Shown here piece after piece: positions 31,524 to 39,609 of a stretch of 64,000 bases of DNA (the first letter of the stretch is position 1; every line of letters starts with the position of its first letter). A program made the position numbers and the translations under genes. Below the pieces are notes generated by a model that had not been told where the DNA came from, ran no database searches, and was given only the letters and a program-made list of their open reading frames with translations. Origin of the DNA: an uncultured Verrucomicrobiae bacterium (GTDB taxonomy: Bacteria; Verrucomicrobiota; Verrucomicrobiia; Limisphaerales; UBA11358); contig CAWDKS010000008.1 of NCBI GenBank assembly GCA_963802965.1, forward strand, positions 160,375 to 224,374, given 5' to 3'.

Positions 31524-32540
31524 ATGGCGGAACGGCCCATTTCAACCTTGAACAAACCGGACGCCGCGTTGGAACTGACGCTGCGACCGTCGCTGTTTTC
31601 CGAATTCACCGGCCAGCCCAAGGTCAAGGAACGGCTCGAAATCGCCGTCGCCGCCGCCAAAAAGCGGAAGGAGGCGCTCGACCACATTTTGTTGAGCGGC
31701 CCGCCCGGCCTCGGCAAAACCACGCTCGCCTACATCCTCGCCAAGGCCATGGGCACGAACATCAAATCCACCAGTGGCCCGACCATTGAGAAGGCCGGCG
31801 ACCTTGCCGGCCTGCTGACCAACCTCGAAGAGGGCGACGTGCTGTTCATTGACGAAATCCATCGCCTGCAAAAAACCATCGAGGAATACCTCTACCCGGC
31901 GATGGAGGACTTCAAGCTGGACATCATCATTGACCAGGGGCCAAATGCCCGCAGCGTGCGGCTGAACCTGCCGCGCTTCACCCTCATCGGCGCGACCACG
32001 CGCAGCGGCCTGCTCACCGCGCCGTTGCTCACGCGTTTTCCCATCCGCGAGCGGCTCGATTATTACGTCACCGGGGATTTGGAAACCATCACCGTCCGCT
32101 CGGCGCGGCTGCTGGACGTCGGGATCGAACCCGCCGGGGCGCACGAAATCGCCCGGCGCAGCCGCGGCACGCCGCGCATCGCCAACAACCTGCTCCGCCG
32201 CGTGCGCGATTACGCCCAGGTCAAACACGAGGGCCGCATCACCGCCGATATTGCCGACAAGGCGCTGGCGATGTTGGAGATTGACCAGAACGGCCTCGAT
32301 GAAATGGACAAGCGCATCCTCGAAGCCGTCATCGTGAAATTCGGCGGCGGACCGGTCGGCATCAGCTCGCTGGCGGTGGCCGTGGGTGAGGAGCCGGACA
32401 CGCTGGAGGAAGTTTATGAGCCGTATCTCATCATGGAAGGCTATCTCAAGCGCACGTCCCAAGGCCGCGTCGCGACGGAATTGAGTTACAAAAAGCTGGG
32501 ATTGAAACCGGCAACCGGAAATCAGGCGAAACTTTTTTAA
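31524..32540 (+). CDS. ruvB: Holliday junction branch-migration helicase RuvB
   Basis: [46 protein letters not shown] and the [13 protein letters not shown] sensor region. Confidence 0.97.
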
Positions 32541-32556
32541 CCATCGAGTGGATTTT

Positions 32557-32584
32557 GAAATCGTAAATCGGCAATCGTAAATCG
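32557..32584. repeat. 4 x NAAATCG heptamer array (ruvB-carB intergenic)
   Basis: gaaatcg-taaatcg-gcaatcg-taaatcg. Confidence 0.7.
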
Positions 32585-32595
32585 AAAATTAAAAG

Positions 32596-34131
32596 ATGCC
32601 CAAGCGCACTGACATCCACAGCGTCCTCATCATCGGCGCCGGCCCGATCATCATCGGCCAGGCGTGCGAGTTCGATTATTCCGGCACGCAGGCCTGCAAG
32701 GCGCTCAAGGAGGAGGGCTTTCGCGTCATCCTCGTGAACTCCAATCCGGCCACCATCATGACCGACCCGGAGTTCGCCGACCGCACCTACATCGAACCCA
32801 TCACGCCCGAATGCGTCGAAAAGGTCATCGTGCGCGAGCTGGCAGAGATGCGCAAAATGGGCGTTCCTCAGAACCCAAACGCCAGAACCAAGACCCCGCA
32901 TAAACTTGTCCTGCTCCCGACGCTCGGCGGCCAGACGGCACTTAACACCGCGATGGCTTTGCACAAAAGCGGCGTGCTGGAGAAATACGGCGTGGAGATC
33001 ATTGGCGCCAACGCCCAGGCCATCGAACGCGGCGAAGACCGGCAGGTGTTCAAAGACCTCATGCTTTCCATCGGTCTCGACGTGCCCATCAGCGGCACCG
33101 CGCACAACCTGGAGGAAGCCCGCGTCGTGACGGAAAAGATTGGCCGTTTCCCGGTCATCATCCGGCCCGCGTTCACGCTCGGCGGCACCGGCGGCGGCAT
33201 CGCCTACAACCGCGATGAATTCGACAATCTGGCCCGGCGCGGCATGGAGCTCTCGCCCGTCTCGGAAATTCTCATCGAAGAATCGCTCCTCGGCTGGAAG
33301 GAGTTCGAGATGGAAGTGATGCGCGACAAGGCCGACAACTGCGTCGTCATCTGCTCCATCGAAAACGTGGACCCGATGGGTGTCCACACCGGCGACAGCA
33401 TTACCGTTGCGCCCATCCAGACGCTCACGGACAAGGAATTTCAAATCATGCGCGACCAGAGCTTCGCCGTGATTCGCGCTGTGGGCGTGGAGACCGGCGG
33501 GTCGAACATCCAGTTCGCCGTCAACCCGGACAACGGCCGCATGGTCATCATCGAGATGAACCCGCGCGTCAGCCGCAGCTCGGCGCTGGCGTCCAAGGCC
33601 ACCGGCTTTCCCATCGCGAAAATTGCCGCCAAACTCGCCGTCGGCTACCTGCTCGACGAACTCCGGAACGACATCACACGCGAAACCCCGGCCAGCTTTG
33701 AACCGAGCATTGACTATGTCGTCACCAAGATACCGCGGTTCGCGTTCGAGAAATTCGCGCAGGCCGACCCGACGCTGACGACGCAGATGAAAAGTGTGGG
33801 CGAAGCGATGGCGATTGGCCGGACGTTCAAGGAATCGTTGCAAAAATGCCTGCGTTCGCTGGAGATTGGCCGTTACGGCCTGGGCGGTGACGGCAAACCC
33901 TGGCGCATCGGCAACGAGGTCTATGGCGACCGCGACATCCTGCCGCGCGACGTCATCAGCCGCAAACTGAGCGTGCCCAACGCAGAACGGATTTTCTTCA
34001 TCCGGCATGCATTACGCGCCGGCTTCACCATCGACGAGATTTTCAACCTGACGAAAATTGACCGCTGGTTCCTGGTTCAAATCAAAGAAATTGTCGATTT
34101 CGAAGAAGAATTGGCAACGTCAAAGAATTGA
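32596..34131 (+). CDS. carB: Carbamoyl-phosphate synthase large subunit, N-terminal half only
   Basis: [44 protein letters not shown]-grasp motifs and [24 protein letters not shown]. Ends after about 511 aa at ...[21 protein letters not shown], whereas canonical CarB is about twice this length. Confidence 0.9.
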
Positions 34132-34135
34132 TTTC

Positions 34136-34161
34136 GGTGGGGCGAGACTCCGTCGAGCCGT
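34136..34161. repeat. 26-nt box GGTGGGGCGAGACTCCGTCGAGCCGT (family G)
   Basis: Identical 26-mer at 50971-50996. Both copies start 4 nt after a stop codon. Confidence 0.9.
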
Positions 34162-34183
34162 AACTGAAATTAGAAAACTTGAA

Positions 34184-34352
34184 GTCACAATTTGTGACCT
34201 CAAGATTGAGGCAACAAGTGGGCAGAGCTTTTGAAATGCCAGTTTGGCATTTCAAACAACCGGTCACAATTTGTGACCGGTTGGTCGCAGATTATTGTTT
34301 TAAGGTCGCAATTTGCGACCTTAAACGTTTAAAGGTTGTCACAAATTGCGAC
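34184..34352. repeat. Cluster of GTCACAA-N-TTGTGAC type palindromes plus an 11-bp-stem hairpin
   Basis: gtcacaatttgtgac 34184-34198; ttgaaatgcca-gtt-tggcatttcaa 34231-34255; cggtcacaatttgtgaccg 34261-34279; ggtcgcaatttgcgacc 34304-34320; gtcacaaattgcgac 34338-34352. A fifth, 23-nt copy sits at 34579-34601 inside the ORF6N gene. Confidence 0.85.
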
Positions 34353-34375
34353 CACCTCTGGGTGAAAGGCATAAA

Positions 34376-34924
34376 ATGGACGGGCGAATGAGTTTGGTAC
34401 CGGTGGAACGAATTGAGCGGGCAATCCTCTCTATTCGCGGCGAAAAGGTGATGCTTGATAGCGATTTGGCTGAACTTTATGGCGTGGGAACCAAGGCGCT
34501 GAATCAGGCTGTGAAACGCAATCTGGACCGGTTTCCACCGGATTTCATGTTCCAGCTCACGATCACCGAGAAAAACGAGGTGGTCACAAATTGTGACCAC
34601 CTTATCCAGCTCAGGTATTCGCCACATCTTCCTTATGCCTTCACCGAGCACGGCGCGTTGATGCTGGCAAACGTACTGAATAGCGAACGGGCGGCCCAGA
34701 CCAGCGTCATGGTGGTGCGCGCGTTTGTGCGGTTGCGGCAGATGCTGTCGTCCAATACCGAACTGGCCCGGAAACTGGAAGCGTTGGAAAAGAAATACGA
34801 CCGGCAGTTCAAGATTGTGTTCGACGCCATTCGCCGGCTAATGTCCCCGCCGGAACCCAAGCACCGCGAAATCGGTTTTCATGTGAAATATGACGACGAC
34901 AAACCAAAGGCCAAAAAACGCTGA
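34376..34924 (+). CDS. ORF6N-domain (KilA-N-related DNA-binding) protein
   Basis: ILSIRGEKVMLDSDLAELYGV.TKALNQAVKRNLDRFPPDFMFQLT...LPYAFTEHGALMLANVLNSERA matches my memory of the ORF6N family. ATG 34376 preferred over TTG 34346. Confidence 0.75.
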   Translation: MDGRMSLVPVERIERAILSIRGEKVMLDSDLAELYGVGTKALNQAVKRNLDRFPPDFMFQLTITEKNEVVTNCDHLIQLRYSPHLPYAFTEHGALMLANVLNSERAAQTSVMVVRAFVRLRQMLSSNTELARKLEALEKKYDRQFKIVFDAIRRLMSPPEPKHREIGFHVKYDDDKPKAKKR

Positions 34925-34964
34925 CCCCCAACCCTCAACCATGAACCCTCAACCGACTTCGTCT

Positions 34965-35024
34965 CTGGTGCAGATCAAAGAAATTGTAAATTTCGAGGAA
35001 GAACTGGCGGGGGCAAAGAACTAA
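34965..35024. repeat. Diverged duplicate of the last 60 nt of carB (including the stop)
   Basis: 48/60 nt identical to 34072-34131. Encodes [19 protein letters not shown] versus [19 protein letters not shown]. Preceded by CCCTCAA-type heptamers (34925-34952). Confidence 0.85.
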
Positions 35025-35029
35025 ACAGT

Positions 35030-35338
35030 ATGAAAATCTTACTCTGGCAAGACGAAACGGTGTCAATAGATTTGGCCGCGCTCGCAGAGAATCTGACTCG
35101 CTTTTTTGCCGGATTACTTATATTTGAAGCTGGTAAAGCGTCTGTCAAAATTTCTGGCCACTCCATTAAAAATCCAGACACATATAACGCGCTCCTAAAA
35201 TCAAAATCTGTTAGCACTGCGGTCAAAACTCCGAGCGGGTATTTATTATTACCAAGAAGCCATACGACAATAATTTTTTCTGGGATTCGCCACCGGGGGC
35301 ACTTTCAATCTTTTCATGCTTTGGATGGGAGGACTTAA
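35030..35338 (+). CDS. Probable N-terminal fragment of the downstream TIR gene (frame-shifted relative to it)
   Basis: 102-aa ORF in low-GC DNA. The TIR reading frame is already open from 35215 and reads more protein-like there (VFIITKKPYDNNFFWDSPPGALSIFSCFGWEDL). Confidence 0.45.
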   Translation: MKILLWQDETVSIDLAALAENLTRFFAGLLIFEAGKASVKISGHSIKNPDTYNALLKSKSVSTAVKTPSGYLLLPRSHTTIIFSGIRHRGHFQSFHALDGRT

Positions 35339-35349
35339 CAAGCCTTCCT

Positions 35350-36063
35350 TTGAGTAATGGATTGGTTTATGTGGCCGGTTGGTTCGTCGCCAACCGAATC
35401 GAGCTTAGACCTCCCAACCGCCATAATGAAATCACTGGGTGTATCAATGATTTTCTTTGGGACAAAACGGGCATAGATGTTTGTATGCGTTCGGCATTTA
35501 TTTGTCCAGATTGTCTGAGGGCATTCGAGGCGAAAAAGTTGACTAAGGAGAACCGACAGCTTTATGAAGGGTTGGTAAAATTGCTGAACGATTTGTCAAC
35601 GGCTTCGCGGGCTAATAATGACATCTTGAGTTTTTGGGGATTTAGGGTGTCTGAAACCGACTTTGATGTCTTTATGTGTCACAACAGCCAGGAAAAGGCG
35701 CAGATTCGATTGGTCTCAAATCAACTCAAGGGCCAGAATATTCGGCCTTGGCTAGATGAAGAACAAATCCAGCCAGGACGTGCTTGGCAGGATGAACTCG
35801 AAGCAAGTATTCCAAAAATCAAAACTGCGGCGGTTTTCGTTGGAAACAGCGGTTTTGGACCTTGGCAAAACGTAGAAGTTAGAGCCTTTCTCCAAGAGTT
35901 CGTGCGACGACAGTGTCCGGTAATTCCCGTCATGCTGGCCGATGTAACAACAGCTCCAGAGCTGCCATTGTTTATGCGACAATTCATGTGGGTAGATTAC
36001 CGCAAAACTCACCCAGATCCTTTCAAGCAATTAGTGTGGGGAATTACGGGTAAAAAGATTTAG
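35350..36063 (+). CDS. TIR-domain protein (C-terminal TIR, N-terminal Cys-containing sensor-like region)
   Basis: FDVFMCHNSQEKAQI...IRPWLDEEQIQPGRAWQDELEASIPKIKTAAVFVGNSGFGPWQNVEVRAFL...CPVIPVML has the bacterial TIR pattern, including a candidate catalytic Glu. No ATG start in frame (track uses TTG 35350). Confidence 0.8.
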   Translation: MSNGLVYVAGWFVANRIELRPPNRHNEITGCINDFLWDKTGIDVCMRSAFICPDCLRAFEAKKLTKENRQLYEGLVKLLNDLSTASRANNDILSFWGFRVSETDFDVFMCHNSQEKAQIRLVSNQLKGQNIRPWLDEEQIQPGRAWQDELEASIPKIKTAAVFVGNSGFGPWQNVEVRAFLQEFVRRQCPVIPVMLADVTTAPELPLFMRQFMWVDYRKTHPDPFKQLVWGITGKKI

Positions 36064-36224
36064 AATTTACCTGTCTTGTTCGCGCGCCATCCCCGAATCC
36101 CAACGGGATTCAAATCCATCAGCCCAGGGTTGGCGAGCGTGTCCATCTGCGGTTAAATTGCCCGCGTAAAACTGTTTTACATGGCCCGGTCGTCAACACC
36201 GAGATGCTCGTGATGATGCTAGAG

Positions 36225-36350
36225 AAGCATGGCATCGTGCCACGCAGGCGTTCGCGGACCCTGCCGCACCCGGTCGCAGCTCCGTCAGGAGCGAAATCTC
36301 TGTAGAAACACACGCCGCCAAATTCGCCGCCCCGTCGGGGCGGCATAGCC
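36225..36350. repeat. Degenerate GC-rich mini-hairpin repeats (GCTCC-GTCA-GGAGC, GCCCC-GTC-GGGGC)
   Basis: gctccgtcaggagcg 36279-36293 and cccgtcggggcggcata 36331-36347. The same modules occur at 38230-38264 on the other side of the GH30 gene. Confidence 0.7.
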
Positions 36351-36454
36351 TTTGCAGGCGGCTACCATGTCTCCCCTGGCGGAGCTCAAAAAAAATTAAT
36401 TTAGCCCTATAAATAAGTTTCGATTGACGGCGCTCTGGAAACACTTTAATCAAA

Positions 36455-38104
36455 ATGACCTATGAAACTCCGGATCTTCCGATTCCTTACCATGGTTGTG
36501 ATGTTGACCGGTTGTCTCGGCTCCATTGCCCTCGCAGCCCCTTCACCAGCCGAGGCGCAAATGCCCAGGCAGCTGTTTGGCCCAAGCTGGCCGACTTTGT
36601 GCAAACCAGTGCGGGCGGAGATCACTTCAAAGCCCTGCCCCCCGTGAAATTTCTCAAAGGCTCGGCCAGTGGCATTGTCGTCACCGTTACCCCCACCGCC
36701 ACACGTCAAACCTTCGAGGGCATCGGCGGCTCCTTGACCGAATCGTCGGCATTTGTGCTGGCGAACGTCTCCAAGGAAAAGCGCGATCTGATCCTGGATT
36801 ATATCTTCAGTCCCCGGCAGGCCAATTTCACCGTGGCGCGTACCCACATCGGCACCTGCGATTTCTGCGTGAACGGGAAGTATTCCTACGATGACTTCCC
36901 CGGGGACGTCTCCCTGGAACACTTCAGCATCGCACCCGATAAACAGGGCTTCAAAGGCGCCCAGGATGCCAACTACGCGACCCTTTCCCTGATCAAGGAT
37001 GCCTTGGCACGACAACCGCAGCTCAAAATCGTGGCCAGCCCCTGGACCGCGCCCCGTTGGATGAAGGACAACGACGACTGGTACGGCAAAGGCCGGGGCG
37101 GCTCTCTGCTTCCAGAACATTACGACACCTTCGCCCGCTACATGGTGAAGTATGTGAAGGCCTACGATGCCGAGGGAGTGATGATATGGGCTGTGACCCC
37201 CGAGAACGAACCTTGGGGTAACGGTGGTCAGTGGGAGAGCATGGAATTCTCGGCCGGGAACATGCGCGACTACATCAAGGGACACTTGGGACCCCAGATG
37301 GCGAGCAACGGCCTCTCGGGCGTCAAAATCATCGGTTTTGACCACAATTGCGGCGATGGTGCAGTGAAATATGTTGAAACGATACTGGGAGACCCGGTTG
37401 CCGCAAGCTATGTCTGGGGTACGGGATTGCACTGGTACAACACCACCAAAACCGCCAGCGCCGGAACCATGGACCAGATCCACGACCGCTTCCCCACCAA
37501 GGCCATCCTCCATACCGAAGGCTGCATTGATGACATCGGTAACAAGGATGATTCAACCAATGGCAGCTTCCTAGGATGGAAGAATGACGCTTGGTGGTGG
37601 ACTGCGGGAGCCACAGACTGGGGCTGGTACTGGGCCTCCAAGGAAACCCACCCCAAGTACGCGCCCGTGCACCGCTACGCCCGGGATCTTGTGGATGGGC
37701 TCAATCACTGGTTCGTGGGCTGGATCGACTGGAACATCGTGTTGGACAAGAAAGGCGGCCCCAATCACGCAGGAAATCTCGCGGCGGCCCCGATCATGGT
37801 GGACACCGACTCGGGAGATGTCTACGTAACGCCGATCTTCTACGTCATGGCGCACTTCAGCCGCTATCTTCAACCAGGGGACAGCATCGTTCAAGTGAAC
37901 ATTGCCGCCCCGCGCCTGGACCCGGACGACTTCCATGCCACTGCGGCCGTCAGTCAGGACAAGAAGACTCTCACGGTGATTGCCTTTAACAAGGCCAATC
38001 AACCCCTCACCTACAACATCCAGGTCGGCGGCCGCTACGCCCCCGTGACCATCCCCGAGAACGCCATCCAGACCCTGCGTTTTGATCTGCGTAACCTGAA
38101 ATAA
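36455..38104 (+). CDS. Glycoside hydrolase family 30 (glucosylceramidase/xylanase-like)
   Basis: RQTFEGIGGSLTESSA, SPWTAPRWMK, VTPENEP (acid/base Glu region) and HTEGC (nucleophile Glu region). The signal/lipoprotein peptide (MKLRIFRFLTMVVMLTGC) is in a different frame (36462..). Confidence 0.85.
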   Translation: MTYETPDLPIPYHGCDVDRLSRLHCPRSPFTSRGANAQAAVWPKLADFVQTSAGGDHFKALPPVKFLKGSASGIVVTVTPTATRQTFEGIGGSLTESSAFVLANVSKEKRDLILDYIFSPRQANFTVARTHIGTCDFCVNGKYSYDDFPGDVSLEHFSIAPDKQGFKGAQDANYATLSLIKDALARQPQLKIVASPWTAPRWMKDNDDWYGKGRGGSLLPEHYDTFARYMVKYVKAYDAEGVMIWAVTPENEPWGNGGQWESMEFSAGNMRDYIKGHLGPQMASNGLSGVKIIGFDHNCGDGAVKYVETILGDPVAASYVWGTGLHWYNTTKTASAGTMDQIHDRFPTKAILHTEGCIDDIGNKDDSTNGSFLGWKNDAWWWTAGATDWGWYWASKETHPKYAPVHRYARDLVDGLNHWFVGWIDWNIVLDKKGGPNHAGNLAAAPIMVDTDSGDVYVTPIFYVMAHFSRYLQPGDSIVQVNIAAPRLDPDDFHATAAVSQDKKTLTVIAFNKANQPLTYNIQVGGRYAPVTIPENAIQTLRFDLRNLK

Positions 38105-38224
38105 TTTTTTCTTGATTAAATAAATTGCAGAGAAGTCCTATGATTTCAGCCCGGGACTTCTCTGATTTGGCCCGTGCGACATCTTTGCTCCAGAAAAAGG
38201 GGTGTCATTGATTTACAGGGTCGG

Positions 38225-38330
38225 CTAGTCCCGTCGGGGCGGCATATTCCGCTCCTGACGGAGCTTGAAAATATTTTCATCGCGGATCCTACAAAGATAT
38301 CGCCCCGCTGGGGCTGGCGCTCCATCCGCA
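38225..38330. repeat. Degenerate GC-rich mini-hairpin repeats, sibling of 36225-36350
   Basis: cccgtcggggcggcata 38230-38246 followed by cgctcctgacggagc 38250-38264 and atcgccccgctggggc. Confidence 0.7.
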
Positions 38331-39449
38331 TTACTTCGTCACCGGCTGGTAGTCCTGCCACAGCCATTCCAGCGCTTCCGGCAGGGTTTGTTGTTTCACT
38401 TTGCTGTCCACGTGGCCGGCGTTGCGGGCAAAGACAAACTGGTAATTATAGCCCTTGGCCGCCAGCACCTTCGCCATGTTCTCGTTGGCGACGACCCAGT
38501 CGTGCATGTTGTCGCGCATGACGTTCGGATTCAAAAGGTCCCGGTCGCCAACTTCCATCCAGATTCGCAGCGGTTTGGCCGGGCTGTTTGGGATGAGATG
38601 TTCATGAAATTCCCAGGCGCCGTGCGGCGTCTTGGCGTCAGGTGGCCATTGCTGGTTCACATAGGTGCCTGAATACGTCAGCACGCGGTGGTAAAGGTCA
38701 GGATGATACCACGCCATGATCAAGGCGCACGAGCCGCCGGAACTGCCGCCCATCGTCGCGCGGCCGTCGGGATTTTTGGTCAAGGTCACGTGGCATTGTT
38801 TTTCCACGAGTGGCAGCACTTCCTGCTCGACGAACTCCGCATACAAGCCGGACATGGTGTCGTATTCCAGGCCGCGCTCGCTGCCCTGGGCGTCACCGCT
38901 GCCATTGCCAATGGAGATGGCAATCATCACCGGCACTTTTTTTTCGGCGATCAGATTGTCCAGAGCCGTGAACAACGCGCGGTCGGGTCCGTCCGCCCCG
39001 ACAACGAAGGGCGCAACCGTGCCGGGGACGTATTGTCTGGGAACATAAACGGATACCCGGCGGGTGTAAGGAGCCGGATGGCTGGTGGTCACCACCAGTT
39101 TGGCGGGGTCGGTGGGGTCCACCGTGCCAAAAGTGCCTCGCGCGCGCGCGATGCCGGGATAAATTTTGCTGTCCGCCGAACTCATGGTGAAATCATAGAC
39201 CGTTCCTTGCGGCACATTGGTCTGCACAATCATTTCCGATGCGCGGTTGTGAGTCGGGCCAAGGATGAAGTTTCCATCGGCATCCGGCGACGGATTGGTG
39301 CCGTCGGGCAATTCCCTGGCGGTGACATAGCCCGGCGTGTTCGGATCGCGGGTCGGCGGAGGCGCAGCCATCGCGGGATGGACGCCAGCCGTCAAATACA
39401 ACACCGCGCCGAGCAACGCGGCATCATGGATCATTCTGGCAATCTTCAT
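38331..39449 (-). CDS. Secreted esterase (alpha/beta hydrolase, enterochelin-esterase/CE1-like)
   Basis: Signal peptide, then the nucleophile elbow MGGSSGGSCAL and a C-terminal His region (ARNAGHVD). Confidence 0.7.
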   Translation of the reverse strand: MKIARMIHDAALLGAVLYLTAGVHPAMAAPPPTRDPNTPGYVTARELPDGTNPSPDADGNFILGPTHNRASEMIVQTNVPQGTVYDFTMSSADSKIYPGIARARGTFGTVDPTDPAKLVVTTSHPAPYTRRVSVYVPRQYVPGTVAPFVVGADGPDRALFTALDNLIAEKKVPVMIAISIGNGSGDAQGSERGLEYDTMSGLYAEFVEQEVLPLVEKQCHVTLTKNPDGRATMGGSSGGSCALIMAWYHPDLYHRVLTYSGTYVNQQWPPDAKTPHGAWEFHEHLIPNSPAKPLRIWMEVGDRDLLNPNVMRDNMHDWVVANENMAKVLAAKGYNYQFVFARNAGHVDSKVKQQTLPEALEWLWQDYQPVTK

Positions 39450-39609
39450 TTTTTAGCTTTCATGTTCATGGCAATGCCGTCGGCTGCGCGAAGTTGAAAC
39501 ATTCACATTCCCGGGGCAAGCGACAAAATGTTTTTCAATTCCCCGCCATTGAAATGAGGGGCTATTGTCTGGCGTCCCTGCGGGCCTTCTTGCATAGTAT
39601 AACCGAACA

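Follow-up and report, generated by a model that had tools for sequence, protein, structure and literature searches.

In a stretch of 64,000 nucleotides from an uncultured Verrucomicrobiae bacterium (contig CAWDKS010000008.1; hereafter the window), positions 35030-36063 of the forward strand constitute one gene of 344 codons, broken by a single missing base after 35230. Very probably this gene joins a C-terminal TIR domain to an N-terminal module that has the fold of the metzincin proteases and lacks their HExxH motif, the whole being interrupted by one deletion. We further propose, as a reading that stands a little better than an even chance, that the intact members of the family are single-gene TIR effectors of the abortive-infection type gated by a pseudo-protease sensor, of which the window holds an inactivated copy; in this proposal the module would bind zinc and sense a cue, the TIR domain would act as an NADase (an enzyme cleaving nicotinamide adenine dinucleotide, NAD+), and the protein would have an anti-phage role.

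A 344-codon gene with one missing base

The ATG at 35030 opens a reading frame of 102 codons that differs from the frame of the 3' part of the gene, the latter ending at the stop codon 36061-36063. An earlier note on this DNA, made from the sequence alone, had described the 3' frame as open from 35215 and lacking an in-frame ATG; indeed no stop codon interrupts it from that position on, no ATG lies in frame upstream of the conserved region, and the first start codon is the TTG at 35350. Its translation contains, in this order, ERVFIITKKPYDNNFFWD, HNEITGCINDFLWDKTGIDVCMRSAFICPDC, DFDVFMCHNS and GPWQNVEVRAF. The two frames overlap by 16 nt only (35215-35230), around an A-rich stretch. The 5' part of the gene (35030-35230, forward strand; codons 1-67, MKILLWQDETVS...AVKT) is in the frame of the ATG and 100% colinear with the N-terminus of four intact homologues (P0001-P0004), and the 3' part (35231-36063, forward strand; codons 68-344 and the stop codon) is likewise colinear with the homologues. 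When the G is restored, the product is a protein of 344 amino acids (AAs) with no further defect, no other stop codon and no other indel. The joined frames match 369 database proteins; among the 120 listed most are 326-363 AAs long with 100% query coverage, the closest of those listed being P0001 (344 AAs, 87% identical to the repaired protein). Since full-length homologues cover 100% of the repaired protein, the two open reading frames (ORFs) are the halves of one gene and not a chance juxtaposition, and the protein of about 340 AAs that the earlier note had expected from a repair is matched from end to end. A natural division into two genes was considered and rejected: the break falls inside the N-terminal module (between residues 67 and 68), and the downstream ORF, without a start before the TTG at 35350, would lose the invariant residues T75 to W100. 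Scans for promoter and terminator consensus sequences around the gene gave counts at chance level, and Rfam gave no match in the region of the gene.

The 1-nt indel that had been placed near 35212-35240 is the absence of a G after 35230 (deletion site 35229-35232, forward strand), which turns ACT-GCC-GAG into ACT-CCG-AG. DNA alignment to the three contigs that encode P0001 (L001-L003, 86% nucleotide identity), where the gene is uninterrupted, shows exactly one 1-nt gap, between 35229 and 35231, the gap being recorded against L001 and L003; the multiple disabling lesions that the earlier note had considered were not seen. In the sequencing run of another soil sample (X2), which carries a sequence about 95% identical, the G is present behind 35230 and the remaining gene is gap-free relative to the window; the extra G converts ACT CCG AGC into ACT GCC GAG, which reads Thr-Ala-Glu as in P0001 (KTAERVF).

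The earlier note had allowed for an assembly error as the cause of the frameshift. The frameshift is probably real instead, because the same deletion recurs when the run that is the likely source (X1, which holds 95% of the region's words) is assembled independently by Logan: its 849-nt contig (34861-35709) has 0 differences and 0 gaps relative to the window, albeit both assemblies were probably built on the same reads, so that their independence is incomplete. The ratio of nonsynonymous to synonymous substitution rates (dN/dS) relative to L001 is 0.09 overall, 0.10 in the N-terminal module and 0.05 in the TIR domain. This implies purifying selection over essentially all of the gene's divergence, and hence a lesion that is very recent or, less likely, a sequencing error; most likely the copy in the window is a very recent pseudogene. 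We regard it as rather unlikely that the organism has an intact gene and that the G was lost through an error of sequencing or assembly in a metagenome bin of low coverage. The word depth over the deletion site in X1 (only about 4.6x), the solitary lesion, the low dN/dS and the presence of the G in the closely related X2 population all agree with such an error, against which stand the identity of the X1 contig over 34861-35709 and the nature of the deletion site (between CAAAAC and TCCG), where no long homopolymer is present. In short-read data, of which X1 seemingly consists (151-nt records), single-base deletions seldom appear in the consensus.

A programmed -1 ribosomal slippage at C-AAA-ACT, by which the unaltered sequence would give rise to the complete protein, would be in keeping with frames that overlap only around the A-rich stretch and with halves that are otherwise intact. 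We give it a very slim chance, as C AAA ACT departs from the canonical X XXY YYZ slippery site and all 120 homologues listed (including those 87% and about 95% identical) encode the protein in a single frame; no stimulatory structure was noticed at the site, where no search for one was made.

A TIR domain behind a metzincin-like module

The TIR domain comprises residues 212-337 (35662-36039, forward strand). Residues 215-337 match Pfam TIR_2 (PF13676) over the whole profile (1-122) with 69.6 bits against a cut-off of 28 (E 4e-19), and the TIR_2 match recurs in all 56 aligned homologues. P0001 was modelled with AlphaFold2 (AF2) in place of the window protein (predicted local distance difference test score, pLDDT, 90.7), and a Foldseek comparison of this model retrieved the TIR domains of MyD88, Hydra TRR-2, AbTir, SARM1 and SPARTA with probability 1.0 and target-normalised template modelling (TM) scores of 0.6-0.8. 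Searched against the PDB, the family profile finds AbTir (PDB codes: 7uwg and 8g83) as its best match (E 4e-8); phmmer with the TIR segment of the window alone returned nothing from the PDB at E<=0.01. The beta-A motif (FDVFxCHNS), the BB-loop (WLDEEQ..PG) and an invariant W-x3-E are all present. G277, P278, W279 and E283 are invariant in the 56 homologues; in the window the W-Q-N-V-E motif lies at 35863-35877 (forward strand), with the Trp codon at 35863-35865 and the codon of the candidate catalytic Glu283 at 35875-35877. The W-x3-E of the family aligns, in its W and E columns, with AbTir DWTNYEL and PdTIR EWPQKEL, and the Glu of the AbTir motif (E208) we take to be the catalytic residue of TIR NADases. 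An active, NAD+-cleaving TIR domain is thereby predicted from the sequence. The claim of a bacterial TIR domain with a candidate catalytic Glu, which the lack of a TIR fold would have undone, is thus borne out by profile, fold and invariant residues alike.

The N-terminal module of about 205 AAs (35030-35643, forward strand) is of a different kind. Residues 1-205 have no Pfam match, even with 56 members scanned at E<=5, and no NCBIfam match, and they lie outside the matches given by PADLOC. A profile of 27 module sequences run against all PDB sequences at E<=10 produced chance matches only, with no AMZ chain among them, and the BFVD viral fold library gave no match at E<=0.001. As the sequence-level links failed, it was structure comparison alone that gave the module a relative. 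The module modelled on its own from 27 diverse sequences (AF2 pLDDT 91.9, predicted TM score 0.89) is matched in the PDB by Foldseek almost exclusively to metzincins among the top matches, with few exceptions of low probability. The first match is the archaemetzincin AmzA (PDB code: 3zvs; E 3e-4, probability 1.0, TM 0.46/0.55), followed by 3lmc, fragilysin, the snake-venom metalloproteinases (adamalysins) and TACE (TM 0.41-0.55); the same AmzA matches are obtained from the full-length model. A long helix (residues 173-194) closes the module and leads into the TIR domain.

The HExxH motif is found in none of 212 module copies, in which neither a His nor a Glu is conserved along the helix expected to carry it (residues 108-124). 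Conserved to 93-100% across the same set are His132, Gly137, Cys138, Asp141, Lys146, Asp150, Met153, Cys159 and Cys162; His132 together with Cys138, Cys159 and Cys162 reaches 97-100%, and the pattern H-x(4-7)-C-x(18-24)-CxxC occurs in 201 of the 212. Met153, which may correspond to the Met-turn of the metzincins, is kept in 197 copies and Cys152 in just 18. In the window this H-x5-C...C-x2-C cluster, a candidate zinc site, spans 35422-35514 (forward strand), with the codons of His132 at 35422-35424, Cys138 at 35440-35442, Cys159 at 35503-35505 and Cys162 at 35512-35514, and Asp141, Lys146, Asp150 and Met153 in between. In the model residue 138 is beta-bridged to residue 157 and the CxxC caps a helix (residues 160-168), an arrangement typical of a zinc knuckle; the His/Cys3 cluster probably binds a structural zinc. 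The invariant polar residues of the module are T75, Y79, N81, N82, S96, W100, T104, N110, H132, D141, K146 and D150. In our reading the module would be a metzincin-derived pseudo-protease, in which a structural metal site persists and the catalytic site is gone. The inspection of the repaired protein by profile and structure that the earlier note had called for has therefore returned TIR_2 and, for the N-terminal domain, a metzincin-like fold without HExxH.

Effector partners, genomic context and proposed function

A HMMER scan of 1.84 billion representative proteins with the module core of the window yielded 161 clusters, and the 94 representatives of at least 260 AAs were counted by Pfam. 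TIR_2 is the partner of the module in 43 of the 94, the Mrr_cat nuclease in 10, a KAP NTPase in 6, and EAD11 and a Nuc_deoxyrib_tr-like domain in 3 each; a caspase, HisKin-conflict, a cytidine deaminase, SLFN_AlbA_2, GmrSD_N, a ResIII helicase, LRR and an SMC-like ATPase occur once each. The module is mostly N-terminal; inverted orders (TIR-module and caspase-module) also occur. The suggestion in the earlier note of an uncharacterised Cys-containing N-terminal module fused to other effectors has turned out to be right, and such effector swapping is what characterises the regulatory or sensor modules of conflict systems.

In species-representative genomes 55 loci were found, spread over many phyla. 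They include Balneolales, Ignavibacteria, Planctomycetota, Acidobacteriota, Desulfobacteraceae, Dehalococcoidales, Omnitrophota, Zixibacteria, cyanobacteria, Gemmatimonadota and one Methanomicrobiales archaeon (module only). Full-length copies also exist in two strains in culture, namely Mycobacterium asiaticum and Acetobacter peroxydans NBRC 13755. An all-against-all comparison of the neighbours at 33 loci from at least 12 phyla detected no family in more than 3 loci except the TIR gene itself; neither a further module-bearing gene nor a conserved NTPase gene was seen beside it. The lack of a shared neighbour family across the 33 loci implies that the gene is a single-gene unit, in agreement with the stand-alone effector proposed in the earlier note. 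The absence of a conserved partner, the sporadic distribution and the presence/absence variation among close relatives are all found here, and these are the operational criteria of a single-gene defence system. Defence or mobile genes adjoin the gene in some loci: GmrSD_N and HEPN in L010, a toxin-antitoxin cluster in L007, and ThsB, SoFic, MADS, pVip, nSTAND, CHAT and integrases in others. Family homologues are thus not confined to housekeeping contexts. The defence-islet context that had been claimed holds in part, for defence genes lie nearby in some genomes and the gene sits in housekeeping operons (sdhA/sdhB) in others.

Several loci have peculiarities of their own. In L012-L014 (8001-8981) the gene of a 326-AA family member, P0006, starts with a GTG and overlaps the end of sdhA (the succinate dehydrogenase flavoprotein gene, sdhB being that of the iron-sulfur subunit) by 4 nt, with the same arrangement on three metagenome contigs; a position between sdhA and sdhB is an unusual place for an accessory toxin-like gene. 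In L039 (5701-6739, an Opitutaceae metagenome-assembled genome, MAG) and L048 (1383-2379, a Gemmatimonadota MAG) both of them species-representative genomes, the module and the TIR domain are in different frames, with the switch at the boundary of the two domains (around residues 200-212), and L048 has overlapping ORFs of 208 and 149 AAs; either the genes have become pseudogenes by other frameshifts, or the system naturally exists in a version with two genes. In L008 (6443-7915, Candidatus Thiodiazotropha) the gene immediately before that of family member P0065 encodes a protein of 490 AAs, which has faint matches to ATPase_2/AAA_22 and a weak one to TIR_2, by which two TIR proteins would stand in tandem. 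In L004 (3583-9032) the N-half of a split carB (494 AAs), itself followed by trpC, precedes a distant family member, P0039 (49% identical), by about 3 kb, with an rve transposase fragment nearby. As a split carB also precedes the gene of the window (see below), this repeated association may reflect lineage synteny or a shared insertion site.

We propose that the pseudo-protease module would hold the TIR domain inactive until an infection cue is bound. The cue would most plausibly be a peptide or a protein accommodated in the relict substrate cleft, which the invariant polar residues would surround, and its binding would release or oligomerise the attached effector. The TIR domains, once brought together, would hydrolyse or cyclise NAD+, and the depletion of NAD+ would lead to abortive infection. 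An abortive-infection-type single-protein system is supported by the architecture, the conservation of the TIR active site, the effector swapping and the accessory behaviour of the gene. More tentatively, and with the chances rather against it, the module may represent a new and widespread class of infection sensor, a dead zinc protease whose relict cleft would recognise a phage protein or peptide or a small molecule and gate at least 12 effectors (among them TIR, Mrr nuclease, deaminase, caspase, conflict-type histidine kinase, and KAP and SMC-like NTPases), each within one immune polypeptide, in bacteria and some archaea.

Two other roles for the module have to be weighed against that of a sensor. 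It may be a homotypic adaptor or assembly domain similar to the effector-associated domains (EADs) of NTPase-centred conflict systems, and would recruit the TIR protein to a module-bearing partner encoded elsewhere, such as a KAP NTPase fusion. The module is found on effectors (TIR, Mrr, deaminase, caspase) and NTPases (KAP, ResIII, SMC-like) alike, with EAD11 in three representatives, and such an effector/NTPase split is the pattern described for EADs (PMC7159879). The 33 loci, however, show neither a module-bearing second gene nor a conserved NTPase gene adjoining the TIR gene, and with 200 AAs and about 20 invariant residues of polar or metal-binding type the module is far larger and more enzyme-like than EADs, so that we consider the adaptor role unlikely. 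EADs are small and helical. Improbable to a greater degree is that the module is still an enzyme, with a non-canonical site (H132, D141, K146, D150 and a Cys-bound metal), in a two-activity effector or a self-processing pro-toxin. In favour of this, the invariant polar residues are unusually many for a pure binding domain; against it, the metzincin catalytic motif is missing from all 212 copies, the helix at 108-124 offers no conserved His or Glu, and regulatory modules are the ones usually seen joined to a variety of toxic domains that are unrelated to each other.

For the pseudo-protease sensor itself, several observations weigh on the other side. The fold match to archaemetzincin is moderate (TM 0.46-0.55, root-mean-square deviation about 5.5 A) and no sequence or profile method used links the module to archaemetzincin; on these two grounds homology as opposed to convergence is not proven. 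EAD11 fusions and the N-terminal position on KAP NTPases also fit an adaptor or even an effector role. Many loci lie in housekeeping contexts, such as those between sdhA and sdhB (L012-L014), and a tblastn search of 50,697 phage and 72,556 plasmid records yielded no copy of full length. PADLOC-DB 2.0 gives only a weak partial match, PDC-S66 (E 3e-6), over the linker and TIR region, with further weak partial matches to SAVED-TIR and RT-TIR and no match of a whole-protein system. Finally, the broken copy in the window probably does nothing, whatever the function of the family.

The accessory behaviour of the gene is seen at its insertion site. It is preceded by the 3' end of a carB that is naturally split and whose N-half of 511 AAs (32596-34131) ends inside the oligomerisation domain. 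The last ~56 nt of carB are duplicated (34072-34127 and 34965-35020, 82% identity), each copy having its own stop codon; the second copy, a direct repeat of the first (34965-35024, forward strand, including its TAA at 35022-35024), lies just upstream of the TIR gene. The earlier note was right that the ATG at 35030 is the only plausible start and stands in another frame than the 3' part, and put its distance from the duplicate at 6 nt, where it is 5 nt. An ORF6N gene (34346-34924) sits between the two copies. In L001 (72-356) ORF6N is missing, the two copies adjoin each other and the intact TIR gene comes next, and in runs X21 and X22, from closely related populations, the carB end and the downstream flank are covered and the TIR gene is absent. 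These arrangements imply that each of the two genes, TIR and ORF6N, behaves as an accessory cassette of its own at a shared insertion hot spot, and the carB 3' end indeed looks like a hot spot of recombination or insertion; no integrase was seen within 32000-39500. As had been claimed, the gene lies in a low-GC part of the window (GC 0.43-0.49 over 34950-36150 versus 0.57-0.64 in the flanks).

Other features of this region were noticed in passing. A contig of run X22 joins 34073 to 34971, which would yield a single hybrid carB-end copy. Five copies of a 17-nt palindrome (GGTCACAAWTTGTGACC) lie within 34183-34598 and none elsewhere in the 64-kb window (0.02 expected by chance). Four of them precede the ORF6N gene or coincide with its start, the fifth is inside it, and two are embedded in a 27-nt inverted repeat (34332-34358 and 34577-34603). 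These palindromes may serve as operators for the DNA-binding protein of the ORF6N/KilA-N type, or a small mobile cassette may end in them. Downstream of the TIR gene, the non-coding segment 36080-36400 is found on many contigs from other soil metagenomes, with a depth far above that of the gene (for example, 32 versus 0 in run X21) and with numerous loose ends and back-joints. Such a pattern points to a dispersed repeat or to an intergenic element that is conserved. A 30-mer taken from the segment occurs only once in the window.

Relation to known systems

TIR effectors are a common immune output in bacteria, plants and animals, the input of which differs between systems and is usually unknown. 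Identifying the ligand of the module would explain a whole set of uncharacterised immune-type proteins and, if the proposal is true, protease-derived pseudoenzymes would join the folds of bacterial pattern recognition. Given the intact sequences of 87% identity and the two cultured carriers, the idea is directly testable. The copy in the window, most likely dead, illustrates the rapid loss of toxic accessory genes, and the interest lies in the family.

With the bacterial TIR NADases (of the AbTir/TcpB type, and those of Thoeris, retron-TIR, SPARTA, Cat1 and TIR-SAVED) the protein shares a TIR_2 domain with the invariant W-x3-E and the combination of a sensor and a TIR domain in one polypeptide. 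The nearest NCBIfam model is that of the retron-TIR reverse transcriptase, with a score well below its cut-off. The partner module distinguishes the protein from these known systems, being none of SAVED, STING, APAZ/Ago, RT, CARF or a coiled-coil, and no ThsA-like second gene accompanies the TIR gene. While TIR effectors with variable sensors are well known, the sensor module described here appears to be undescribed and without a family model; our literature search returned nothing linking metzincins or archaemetzincins with TIR or phage defence.

The archaemetzincins (MEROPS M54; AmzA, human AMZ1/AMZ2) are the best structural match to residues 1-205 (PDB codes: 3zvs, 4axq and 3lmc; probability 0.99-1.0) and have the landmarks of the module in the same order, i.e. 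a central helix, a His/Gly-Cys, a conserved Met and a CxxC. In the archaemetzincin motif HExxHxxGx3Cx4CxMx17CxxC three His bind the catalytic zinc, at a site (HExxHxxGxxH) whose Glu acts as the general base, four Cys bind a second zinc, and the Met is conserved (PMC4681839). The module, in contrast, lacks HExxH and the catalytic Glu in all 212 copies and conserves three Cys and one His where the archaemetzincins have four Cys; its spacing is C-x14-M-x5-CxxC as opposed to C-x4-C-x-M-x17-CxxC, and Pfam Peptidase_M54 does not match it even at E<=5 (56 members). Archaemetzincins are free peptidases, whereas the module is always part of a multidomain conflict-type protein.

A further parallel is provided by the inactive caspases, trypsins and cyclases of prokaryotic conflict systems, where they act in binding or as decoys (Kaur et al. 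2020, PMC7159879). The module, which is not described in that work, resembles them in having a peptidase-derived, catalytically dead fold, to which exchangeable effectors are joined in genes of sporadic occurrence. The domains of Kaur et al. (2020) belong to multi-gene, NTPase-centred (MoxR-vWA) systems, in which they occupy the position of the effector, whereas the module described here is part of a single-gene protein and stands beside an apparently active effector.

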